A stretch of DNA of 64,000 nucleotides, taken from positions 7,517-71,516 of the forward strand of contig DASXVG010000134.1 of NCBI GenBank assembly GCA_036504355.1, in the 5' to 3' direction. The notes below the pieces were generated by a model. It had not been told where the DNA came from. It ran no database searches and saw only the letters and a list, made by a program, of their open reading frames with translations. Positions 2,050 through 20,583 of the stretch are shown in pieces; the stretch's first letter is position 1; each line of letters opens with the position of its first letter. Source of the stretch: Candidatus Limnocylindrales bacterium. GTDB lineage: Bacteria; Chloroflexota; Limnocylindria; Limnocylindrales; CSP1-4. A program made the position numbers and the translations under genes.

Positions 2050-2124
2050 TGGCGCGTGGCCTAACGGTATGGCACCTGACTCTGGATCAGGGGGTTCCAG
2101 GTTCGAATCCTGGCGCGCCAGCCA
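2050..2124 (+). tRNA. tRNA-Gln (anticodon CUG) with encoded CCA
   Basis: Hand-folded cloverleaf. Acceptor TGGCGCG/CGCGCCA gives a U1-A72 pair. Anticodon loop is CTCTGGA (CTG), T-arm is CCAGG-TTCGAAT-CCTGG, discriminator is G, and the 3' end is CCA. A TAGAAT -10 hexamer lies at 2031-2036. Confidence 0.9.
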
Positions 2125-18982: not shown

Positions 18983-19297
18983 CTACGCGCGCCCGACGAC
19001 CCGCCGGCCGTTCTCGTGGGTCACGCCGTCGCACCGCCCGTTCTTCGCGAACACCAGGGCGATGTGGTAGCCCGTCGCCCGCCACTGGAGGAGCGTCCGC
19101 CCATCGGGGAGCGGCGTCTCCTGGCTCGCCTCGCCGACCGCCCTGACGATCTCCCGGCGGGTCCTCCCCTTGAGCGCGCCGAGCGCAACGAACTGCTTGC
19201 GCAGGGCGCGTCCCGGCGACAGGTAGACGTACGGGACGAGGATCGCCACGGCCCCGGCGACGATCAGGGCGAGGATGCCCAGCGCCGTCGCATCCAT
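18983..19297 (-). CDS. small membrane-anchored hypothetical protein
   Basis: ATG 19297 is preceded by GAGGAGG. The protein starts MDATALGILALIVAGAVAILVPYVYL... Confidence 0.6.
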   Translation of the reverse strand: MDATALGILALIVAGAVAILVPYVYLSPGRALRKQFVALGALKGRTRREIVRAVGEASQETPLPDGRTLLQWRATGYHIALVFAKNGRCDGVTHENGRRVVGRA

Positions 19298-19504
19298 CGG
19301 ATCCTCCTCGCCCGGACCGCCGGCCCGACGAGGGCCGTCACGATCACCGGTGGATCGTATGCCAGGTCGTGGGTGGGCCCGGTCCCGGGGCATGACGGGC
19401 CCAAGGTACGGCCCGCCGATGGGACGGGTTGGAAGGTGCACAGGCCGAGCGCGGCGGCGTACGGTTGTCGCAGACGGCGAGAGCCGTCCCAGCCAGGCGG
19501 CTGG

Positions 19505-19600
19505 CCGACAAAGGCAAACCCGGGGTGACCCGGGGACGCAAAGCCACGGGACTCGGGTTGGTGGAGCACAACGCCGACGCGAGTCAGCCGGGTTGCCGAA
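19505..19600 (+). promoter_or_regulatory. c-di-GMP-I (GEMM-I) riboswitch aptamer
   Basis: ACAAAGGCAAACC, then CCCGGG-GUGA-CCCGGG (a GNRA-capped hairpin), then GACGCAAAGCC, then a P2 hairpin, then AGCCGGGUUGCCGA. This matches the conserved core of the Vibrio cholerae Vc2 aptamer as I remember it. A candidate promoter TGCACA-N17-TACGGT lies at 19437-19465. Confidence 0.8.
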
Positions 19601-19614
19601 GTCAGGAGGTTGGT

Positions 19615-19710
19615 GTGGCTACGGCCCGCCCGCGCCTCGACGCGCTCGTCCGCGTGCTGGCCGTCGCGGCGCTCGCAATCGCGGGCATCGCGTCGGTCCG
19701 ACCCATCTGA
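19615..19710 (+). CDS. 31-aa hydrophobic micro-protein downstream of the riboswitch
   Basis: GTG 19615 lies 5 nt after AGGAGG (19604-19609). Sequence (M)ATARPRLDALVRVLAVAALAIAGIASVRPI. 27 of 30 codons end in G/C. Confidence 0.6.
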   Translation: MATARPRLDALVRVLAVAALAIAGIASVRPI

Positions 19711-19742
19711 GCCCGCGCGGGTCTGCCCGCGCCATCCCGGAC

Positions 19743-19767
19743 ACGCCCCGTCCCCCGGACGGGGCGT
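19743..19767. terminator. bidirectional stem-loop between convergent genes
   Basis: ACGCCCCGTCC-CCC-GGACGGGGCGT forms an 11-bp perfect stem. A second imperfect hairpin follows at 19768-19790. Confidence 0.6.
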
Positions 19768-19788
19768 CGTCGCGTCCGGGGACGGCGA

Positions 19789-20583
19789 CTACCTGAGGAC
19801 GACGAACGCGTCGAGGTCGACGCGCGGCCGTCCGCCTGTCCCGAGGACGACGACCCGGATGGTCTTCGTGACCGTCGAGGGGTACGCCTTCCGCCAGACG
19901 ATCGAGCGGTACTGGGTCGCCGAGCGGTACGTGTCGACCGTCGCCTGGAGCACGCCGTCGACGTAGATCCGGACCTTGCCGCGCGTGACCCCGCGGGTCG
20001 TCACGAGCGCGATCGAGCGTCCCGTGAACGTGTAGCGTGCCCATCGACCGGCCGTGGAGGTCGAGCGCACCGAGCCGCCCGAATACCTGGTGGAGCCGGA
20101 CCGGCTCCACGGCGAGGAGTCCCGGATGGCCCCAGCTGCCCCCACAGCTTGTCGGCGAAGGGGTCGTTCGGGAGGGCGTCGATCGTGGCGATCGGGTCCG
20201 CCTCCGCGAAGGCGACGCCGCTGACGCCGTTCAGGCCGGCGATCGTCCGGTTGGCCGCCACGCCCTGGGGCTGCGCGAAGCGGTAGACGCCCATGGTGCC
20301 CGCGTTGCCGAAGGGGCCGCACGAAGGTCGCCCGCATCCCCGCCGCGTGCGACAGCCGGTCCACCAGGCGGGCATCGCCCAGCGAGGCGAGCCGGGCCGC
20401 CCTCGTTGCGCCAAGCTCGTCCGCGATCCAGCGCACGACGACCTGACGCGTCTCGCGGATCGCCTGGGGAGCGGACAGCGCGGGCCCGGCGGCTGCAGCA
20501 CCTGCCGCGAACGCGGACGATGCGACGACCACGGCGAGGGCGATGGCCGTGGCGAGCCGGGCGAGACGCGGGGGTCGGTGCAT
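19789..20583 (-). pseudogene. decayed subtilisin-like (S8) peptidase gene: signal peptide, I9-like propeptide and C-terminal beta-domain, with no catalytic domain and two frame changes
   Basis: Frame A starts MHRPPRLARLATAIALAVVVASSAFAAG.... The sensible sequence then continues in frame B (ORF 20001..20501: FGNAGTMGVYRFAQPQGVAANRTIAGLNGVSGVAFAEADPIATIDALPNDPFADKLWGQLG). It returns to frame A at ...AIRDSSPWSRSGSTRYSGGSVR...GKVRIYVDG.... The frame switches fall near C and G runs at about 20310-20330 and 20125-20135. Confidence 0.55.

Follow-up and report, generated by a model that had tools for sequence, protein, structure and literature searches.

What a riboswitch controls when the only gene behind it is 31 codons long is the question raised by positions 19437-19767 on the + strand of the 64-kb stretch of Candidatus Limnocylindrales DNA (phylum Chloroflexota, contig DASXVG010000134.1) analysed here. 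This whole stretch is referred to as the window, and all coordinates are positions in it. The segment, about 330 nt long, probably forms a self-contained monocistronic transcription unit, which runs from a promoter through hairpins, an aptamer for cyclic dimeric guanosine monophosphate (c-di-GMP) and a Shine-Dalgarno (SD) sequence to a 31-codon gene and further hairpins. An original prediction, made from the letters alone, had described the core strings of the aptamer, its P1b helix and P2 base, the promoter hexamers, the SD sequence with a GTG start, the short open reading frame (ORF) and an 11-bp hairpin, and all of these lie where it had placed them. Figures for conservation and alignment refer to 20 related loci (numbered with the prefix L) unless stated otherwise. 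The argument is carried by two elements:

19504-19601, + strand: class-I c-di-GMP (GEMM-I) aptamer, matched by an Rfam covariance model over positions 1-80 of 80
19615-19710, + strand: micro-ORF of 31 codons with GTG start and TGA stop, product MATARPRLDALVRVLAVAALAIAGIASVRPI

Class-I aptamer

Rfam gives a single riboswitch match in the window, with a score of 67.6 bits (gathering threshold 59; E = 7.8e-14), and the same match is returned by a permissive scan. The aptamer is real, far beyond chance. Positions 19508-19545 read ACAAAGGCAAACC-CGGG-GTGA-CCCG-GGGACGCAAAGCC and positions 19586-19599 read AGCCGGGTTGCCGA. The P1b helix (CCCGGG-GUGA-CCCGGG, 19519-34) is capped by a GNRA loop (GUGA) and shows compensatory changes in L128. 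P2 spans 19542-19594, where 19542-50 faces 19585-94 and is joined by ACUCG/CGAGU; it contains the helix with a bulged AG, and its base is formed by GACTCG (19551-56) and CGAGTC (19580-85). Both helices are paired in 99-100% of the alignment cells. The distal part of P2 varies freely in length and sequence and the aptamer core is invariant.

Published ligand contacts are G20, A47 and C92 in Vc2 and G12, A39 and C104 in Vc1. The equivalents of the Vc2 set are G19513, A19540 and the unpaired C19596, which precedes the 3' strand of P1. The spacing of 27 nt from G19513 to A19540 is identical to that of G20-A47 in Vc2 and of the counterpart in Vc1. Candidates for the interhelical pair (C19537 and G19587) are at the expected places, and all five bases are invariant in the relatives. 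By its family signature the RNA appears to be an ordinary class-I c-di-GMP riboswitch, and ligand binding is predicted. The match and G19513 thus bear out the claim of a class-I GEMM-I aptamer with G at the G20 position, and the structural alignment to Vc2 that had been proposed retains the canonical G/A/C set. A match to RF01051 over about 19505-19600 had also been predicted; an above-threshold match was obtained at 19504-19601, but the family listed for it is RF03167.

RF03167 (c-di-GMP-I-GGC) is the best-scoring and only listed Rfam family. The second member of clan CL00126 that also exceeds its gathering score is presumably RF01051. We take 'GGC' to stand for the bases at positions 20, 47 and 92. 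The consensus of RF03167 reads GACGCGAAGCC and the window reads GACGCAAAGCC, so that overall the window is very near the model consensus and differs from it by the canonical A (A19540) at the middle 'G' position. The G that defines the GGC variant at the equivalent of A47 is an A here and in all relatives. It is also an A in all 119 aptamers listed from a genome scan whose pattern permitted A or G. Every one of the 20 A47-type aptamer matches checked (19 loci, Rfam 15) carries the RF03167 label, including matches in Firmicutes and Actinomycetota (Cohnella, Rubrobacter and Arthrobacter among them). Since A occupies the defining position and all 20 of these matches share the label, the label is misleading; it is a property of the model and is uninformative for the window RNA. 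The canonical aptamers so labelled besides the window are L001, L003, L005, L009, L013, L017, L022, L031, L032, L038, L042, L046, L047, L051, L118, L123, L125, L128 and L137. This is an annotation trap, in which the 'GGC variant' model outscores its parent on canonical aptamers and automated annotation would mislabel them.

The riboswitch class for 3',3'-cyclic GMP-AMP (GEMM-Ib) is defined by an A at the G20 position. It shares its fold and clan with the window RNA, whereas the window and all relatives have G at this position, which argues against assignment to that subclass. In common with Vc2 and the GEMM-I type (RF01051), the window has the two-helix aptamer, the GNRA-capped P1b, P2 and the joining sequences AAAGGCAAACC ... 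GGGACGCAAAGCC ... AGCCGGGUUGCCGA, together with identical ligand contacts and spacing. Unlike that type, it has a P1 that the model aligns over 2-3 bp, with a conserved hairpin next to its 5' strand, a probable expression platform formed by a hairpin at the initiation region instead of a terminator, a Chloroflexota host and a cargo of 31 codons.

Conservation of the 31-codon gene

The micro-ORF encodes (M)ATARPRLDALVRVLAVAALAIAGIASVRPI. The original counts of 27 G/C-ending codons out of 30 and an AGGAGG-N5-GTG start region were both confirmed in the window. Taken together, 22 DNA loci and 31 database ORFs yield 40 distinct peptides, all of 31 residues. All 21 complete loci have 31 codons; indels occur in the P2 loop and the 3' spacer and never in the ORF. 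The start is GTG (ATG once) and the stop lies at the same codon throughout, as TGA in one subgroup (N-terminus ATARP) and as TAG in the other (PRGHP). Among the 40 peptides, A10, R13, V14, A23 and R29 are invariant and L8, L11, A21, A26 and P30 are near-invariant. An ENA metagenome contig (L001) has an identical 31-amino-acid (aa) product called as a gene at 84% DNA identity. Its five substitutions in the ORF are all synonymous and in the third position. L001 matches the window throughout the aptamer core and has a scrambled distal P2 loop; GTG is replaced by ATG, and divergence resumes directly past the stop.

Ratios of nonsynonymous to synonymous differences per site (pN/pS, Nei-Gojobori method) were obtained for 18 distinct DNA sequences:

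Codons 2-31, ORF frame: 0.56
Codons 6-31, ORF frame: 0.42
Codons 2-5, ORF frame: 1.5
The two other frames: 1.2-3.0

From these patterns of substitution it is concluded that the micro-ORF is probably translated and that its product is under moderate selection. The expectation that the ORF would be conserved at the codon level in aptamer-bearing relatives is borne out by the constant 31 codons and by the frame-specific pN/pS.

Nucleotide conservation is very high through the ORF, invariant synonymous sites lie in the predicted hairpins 19607-37 and 19640-55, and the N-terminal codons co-vary as RNA pairs with no protein constraint. These features, the pN/pS values only moderately below 1 and a folding z-score of -4.1 for 19470-19780 compared with shuffled sequences would also fit a transcript that acts as RNA, either as a c-di-GMP-binding small RNA or sponge or as a riboswitch-terminated regulatory RNA. 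The 31-codon frame would then be incidental or a cis-acting device and the peptide would have no function. Such a role is unlikely, as the substitutions are specific to one frame (0.42-0.56 in frame and 1.2-3.0 elsewhere), 40 distinct peptides keep exactly 31 codons while the non-coding parts carry indels, and the start (GTG/ATG), the stop (TGA/TAG) and the SD are maintained, the last without variation. L144 is strongly diverged in its nucleotides, yet it encodes a hydrophobic peptide with the same C-terminus. A translated gene is therefore the preferred reading.

Properties of the peptide

The product is predicted to be a single-pass membrane micro-protein. Its grand average of hydropathy is 1.19, and the top 19-residue hydropathy window, ALVRVLAVAALAIAGIASV, scores 2.3. 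A basic N-terminus is followed by a hydrophobic core and a C-terminal R-P-(I/L) that is called invariant. The charges of R5, R7 and R13 compared with R29 suggest an N-in orientation. Residues 19, 23 and 27 are small in every one of the 40 distinct peptides (small-xxx-small), which may be a helix-packing pattern, and the peptide most likely packs against a membrane partner or against itself.

Pfam and NCBIfam returned zero matches for the peptide, and there is no paralogue in the 64-kb window. A phmmer search against 1.84 billion representatives reached just three close relatives because the query is so short. The divergent member L144 (300-495) shares the aptamer and leader hairpins and has a 35-codon ORF (MPAMLAPWRRLLLMLASAVPLLLIVLTGLASVRPI); its nucleotides have diverged, and the architecture and the C-terminal GLASVRPI are kept.

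The basic n-region followed by a hydrophobic stretch has the look of a signal anchor, so the ORF could be a remnant: the N-terminal signal or anchor left from a longer secreted protein under riboswitch control, truncated and not yet decayed. The nearest aptamer outside the family (L007, Chloroflexota) and those of L013, L017, L038 and L046 do drive anchored proteins of about 130-145 aa. Origin from the anchor of these cargo proteins was considered and rejected, as the profile-profile comparison with the peptide family gave an hhalign probability of 0.3%. It is also consistent with a remnant that the convergent neighbour gene in the window is itself truncated, and that L139-L142 recently lost the aptamer with the ORF still intact. 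A decaying fragment would hardly show purifying selection in frame, nor would 40 distinct sequences in two subgroups be expected to share a length of exactly 31 codons, a fixed stop, the SD and the invariant residues; this origin is very unlikely.

As a functional peptide, the product resembles MgtR, KdpF, TisB and AapA1 by description, since these are also about 30 aa long with a single hydrophobic helix. The mRNAs of small hydrophobic regulatory peptides and type I toxins keep the SD in a stable local hairpin. Unlike type I toxins and MgtR-like peptides, the window unit carries a second-messenger aptamer. Comparison of loci and neighbourhoods identified neither an antitoxin RNA nor a partner gene nor a conserved neighbour; the antisense strand was covered by a promoter scan, which called no promoter on the - strand in 19250-19850. 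It is a distinctly speculative and improbable proposal that the peptide is a membrane-active effector, that is, a toxin-like, depolarising or partner-inhibiting helix acting through its small-xxx-small face, with synthesis gated by c-di-GMP through translation. If so, it would be an analogue of type I toxins or MgtR-like regulators that has no antitoxin and is controlled by a riboswitch, and soil Chloroflexota would gain a one-step link from a second messenger to membrane physiology or dormancy.

Organization of the probable transcription unit

The remaining features of the unit are:

19437-19465, + strand: promoter-like region with -35 TGCACA (19437-42), a 17-nt spacer and -10 TACGGT (19460-65)
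19473-19488, + strand: 5'-terminal hairpin A, GACGGC-GAGA-GCCGTC, paired in 99% of cells
19489-19504, + strand: hairpin B, CCAGCC-AGGC-GGCTGG, paired in 100% of cells
19604-19609, + strand: SD AGGAGG, with 5 nt to the start codon and 6 nt from the 3' strand of P1
19607-19637, + strand: initiation-region hairpin from RNAalifold, in which codons 3-8 pair with the GTG and the 3' half of the SD
19715-19732, + strand: first post-ORF hairpin, GCGCGGG-TCTG-CCCGCGC, from the minimum free energy fold
19743-19767, + strand: second post-ORF hairpin, 11 perfect bp with a CCC loop, terminator-like with no T-tract

In the promoter-like region, the T, A and T of the -10 TAnnnT are invariant, GTGCAC is near-invariant at a fixed spacing and the spacer sequence is free. 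The proposed promoter TGCACA-N17-TACGGT therefore stands as a conserved element, but a simple consensus scan does not call it. The assignments of both promoter and terminator rest on conservation and hairpin stability because the scan calls neither. Transcription may start near 19472, as the conserved -10 and -35 elements are placed upstream and hairpin A begins there. Variation in hairpin A (A-U/G-U/G-C and C-G/U-G/U-A) preserves pairing, and its location at the putative 5' end suggests a stabilising stem-loop. Hairpin B adjoins the 5' strand of P1 and has a stability of -10 to -15 kcal/mol; it has one compensatory pair (A-U to G-C in two sequences) and a loop that varies in sequence and length.

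GGAGG and the spacing from SD to start are invariant. The first post-ORF hairpin keeps its position in relatives with differing sequence, for example GGGGCTCC..GGAGCCCC in L136. The second hardly varies within the TGA subgroup except in its loop, and L136 has one compensatory change from C-G to U-A. The region 19705-19790 folds at -53.7 kcal/mol (z = -2.9). A terminator-like call on the - strand at 19534-19519 is the P1b hairpin in reverse reading and was discarded.

Probable expression platform

The 3' strand of P1 lies at 19597-98, the SD follows 6 nt later and there is no terminator between the aptamer and the ORF. Because of this short distance and the lack of an intervening terminator, control is most likely translational. 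The initiation-region hairpin is paired in 97-100% of cells; it shows a compensatory change from G-C (12 sequences) to C-G (6 sequences) plus a U-G/U-A swap. In L144 the SD is also folded into a local hairpin. Thermodynamic folding predicts that the 19607-19637 hairpin forms with or without the aptamer enforced.

If control is translational, a 30S subunit bound at the GTG start would extend over P1 and into P2. Binding of c-di-GMP would lock P1 beside the 19607-19637 hairpin and lower translation; on steric grounds, the locked aptamer would stack on an initiation hairpin that is already closed. In the free RNA, 19596-19606 would be single-stranded and could serve as a standby site. An OFF switch is the best guess, slightly favoured over an ON switch because the 30S footprint would overlap P1 and P2 and the SD and start already lie in a conserved hairpin. 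The precedent in Clostridioides difficile discussed below, where the riboswitches repress, may point the same way by analogy.

The original prediction had suggested a translational switch by exchange of pairing, in which CCAGCC pairs either with GGCUGG or with GGUUGG. Translational control is favoured, but the proposed exchange is unsupported: GGUUCG in L031 breaks one pair, and folding gives no consistent change at the SD or start. The CCAGCC/GGUUGG alternative has no covariation behind it because both segments are near-invariant, and it was rejected. An extended P1 (19501-05 with 19601-05 across an AA bulge) was also considered; it could form in every sequence, would compete with hairpin B and would cover the SD, but it remains speculative. 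A pairing between the end of the ORF (CCAUCUGA) and the SD region, with 7 of 8 pairs in the window, was rejected because inspection by eye shows it disrupted in the TAG and L118 subgroups.

Distribution of the unit

A scan of a genome collection with a pattern for the aptamer alone returned at least 119 loci in many phyla. Among the matches listed, only L031, L051 and L118 have the leader, SD and ORF as in the window. All three are species-representative metagenome-assembled genomes (MAGs) named 'uncultured Chloroflexia bacterium' with 70-73% G+C. A metagenome scan with a pattern for the expression platform gave 17 further contigs from the Joint Genome Institute (JGI). The unit is also found on the ENA contig L001, and a JGI metagenome contig matches the window itself. 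The flanks beyond the unit are unalignable between the two subgroups. The unit appears to recur in uncultured soil Chloroflexota, and the labels of the three MAGs make a soil lineage of this phylum, and not Actinomycetota, the most likely host.

A homologue search with the 93-aa in-frame ORF through the aptamer as query gave 29 metagenome 'proteins'. These entries (P0001-P0029; 19429-19710, + strand, in the window) are called ORFs of 60-130 aa, most of which read through the aptamer, with KGKPGVTRGRKATGL as its core, into the micro-ORF. They are largely artefacts fused to a real ORF, and the true micro-ORF is rarely called. Gene callers that translate the aptamer in frame are thus a second annotation trap, which affects 29 database 'proteins'.

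In L139 (1499-1714) and also in L140-L142, eight contigs in all, the aptamer, promoter and SD are replaced. There the peptide is the C-terminal end of a 71-codon ORF whose N-terminal extension looks coding, and a gene of the major facilitator superfamily (MFS) in the same direction starts 112 nt downstream. Since the ORF DNA is almost identical to that of L122, the replacement is recent and has little bearing on selection.

Several points weigh against the unit as proposed. P1 has only 2 bp in the Rfam alignment, and the simple consensus scan found neither a sigma-70-type promoter nor a T-tailed (canonical intrinsic) terminator on the + strand. Thermodynamic modelling gives no ligand-dependent change in SD accessibility. 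The extended P1, at -6.5 kcal/mol, does not beat controls with shuffled 3' strands, of which a fraction of 0.33-0.69 pairs at least as well, and the direction of the switch is a guess. The pN/pS of 0.42-0.56 amounts to moderate constraint only. Codons 2-5, with a value of 1.5, have no protein-level constraint and are apparently shaped by the RNA hairpin. Part of the conservation of the ORF may be at the RNA level, since several invariant synonymous sites lie in predicted hairpins. The relatives are close (mean column identity 73%), which limits the power of covariation and dN/dS. The metagenome set is biased towards intact units because its pattern included the SD and start. The carriers of the unit are uncultured and the case is computational.

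Neighbouring genes

The next ORF in the window ends at 19789 and is convergent, as originally noted. The next gene is also convergent in L137, L124, L118, L125/L132 and L129, and its identity differs between loci: L137 has a regulator of the ArsR type, L125/L132 a nuclease-like gene and L118/L124 a gene for a large secreted protein, and in the window it is a truncated remnant. In L051, L031 and L123/L133 the next gene is co-directional and lies 210-1240 nt past the stop of the micro-ORF (relative +306, +835 and +1337). Comparison of the loci found no neighbour gene common to both subgroups. The micro-ORF is the only conserved cargo, because the next gene is usually convergent and variable between loci and none is conserved in both subgroups. 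The claim that the transcript carries nothing else holds for the window and for most related loci.

An alternative is that the riboswitch governs read-through into the convergent gene, as antisense regulation with an irrelevant micro-ORF. In its favour, c-di-GMP riboswitches are statistically enriched antisense to neighbouring genes, a convergent gene follows in the window and in several relatives, and the 3' hairpins have no T-tract. It is nevertheless extremely unlikely, since that gene is a different one at different loci (remnant, ArsR-type, nuclease-like or large secreted protein), two conserved and very stable hairpins separate it from the ORF and the next gene is co-directional in L051, L031 and L123.

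The convergent ORF in the window (19789-20583, - strand) is coding-like only in its last 93 codons (19789-20070), and a subtilisin-propeptide-like stretch lies in another frame at 20001-20501. Its homologues in L118/L124 are longer than 460 aa and end in ...GERVDLDAFAVLR. The ORF is probably a frameshifted or truncated pseudogene. The divergent upstream gene (18983-19297, - strand) codes for a protein of 104 aa that has a membrane helix at its N-terminus and matches no family; its homologues lie near the unit in L126, L001 and L135 and farther off in L132. A functional tie to an MFS transporter was considered and rejected, as the MFS genes near the unit in the window and L137 are not homologous to that in L139. 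The statement that the window has no GGDEF gene agrees with a six-frame search that found no GG[DE]EF motif in the window, a search for the motif only.

Comparison with small proteins of C. difficile

In C. difficile, five class-I riboswitches (Cdi1_6 and Cdi1_8-11) precede the CD1980.2 family of nearly identical, membrane-associated small proteins of 58 aa, which they repress by premature termination; the proteins promote sporulation, and the authors report no homologues outside C. difficile (bioRxiv 10.64898/2026.06.10.731418). As this report of class-I riboswitches driving small membrane proteins dates from June 2026, the original description of the cargo as unusual was overstated. In both systems a class-I riboswitch precedes a gene for a small, previously unannotated protein that is membrane-associated and has basic as well as hydrophobic segments, and in both this small gene is the regulated output. 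The CD1980.2 proteins are about twice as long, multicopy, under termination-type OFF control and linked to sporulation, whereas the window unit has 31 codons, is single-copy in the window, has no terminator between aptamer and ORF and belongs to another phylum. Because length and host differ, the CD1980.2 family is treated as an analogue and not as a member.

What is new compared with the C. difficile case is the phylum, the peptide family and its size (31 aa), the copy number and the non-terminator platform. The unit would thus be a second, unrelated case, in another phylum and with another platform, of a c-di-GMP riboswitch with a tiny membrane protein as its sole output. This suggests that small proteins may be general but overlooked effectors of second messengers. 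The compact unit of about 330 nt is amenable to testing in a heterologous host.

Related aptamers and other observations

Among the matches listed from the genome scan, GEMM-I aptamers are frequent in MAGs of Actinomycetota (Solirubrobacterales, Acidimicrobiales, Actinotalea, Arthrobacter and Rubrobacter), often upstream of genes for type IV pilin-like or secreted proteins. The original remark that the class is uncommon in Actinomycetota is contradicted by these many matches. Pilin-like genes (GFTLIELLVV) follow many of these aptamers, in Solirubrobacterales as well as in other Actinomycetota, and the Solirubrobacterales MAG L005 has two identical copies of an aptamer and a type IV pilin-like gene 859 nt apart (1165-1237 and 2024-2096). 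The genes driven by the nearest aptamers outside the family (L007, 4741-5308; L013; L017; L038; L046) encode a family of proteins of about 130-145 aa that carry a membrane anchor at the N-terminus (..LIALLVVGLIAG..AAKGG).

Short ORFs also lie directly 3' of GEMM-I aptamers in L042 and L061 (Actinotalea; 52-53 aa, MSDLGNSAS...LLRAV) and in L060 and L114 (Actinomycetota MAGs; 48-49 aa, MYEPPSV...). Their products are non-hydrophobic, and they may be further riboswitch-controlled small proteins. The window also has a tRNA gene at 2050-2121 (+ strand; Rfam tRNA, 66 bits), which is unrelated to the unit.

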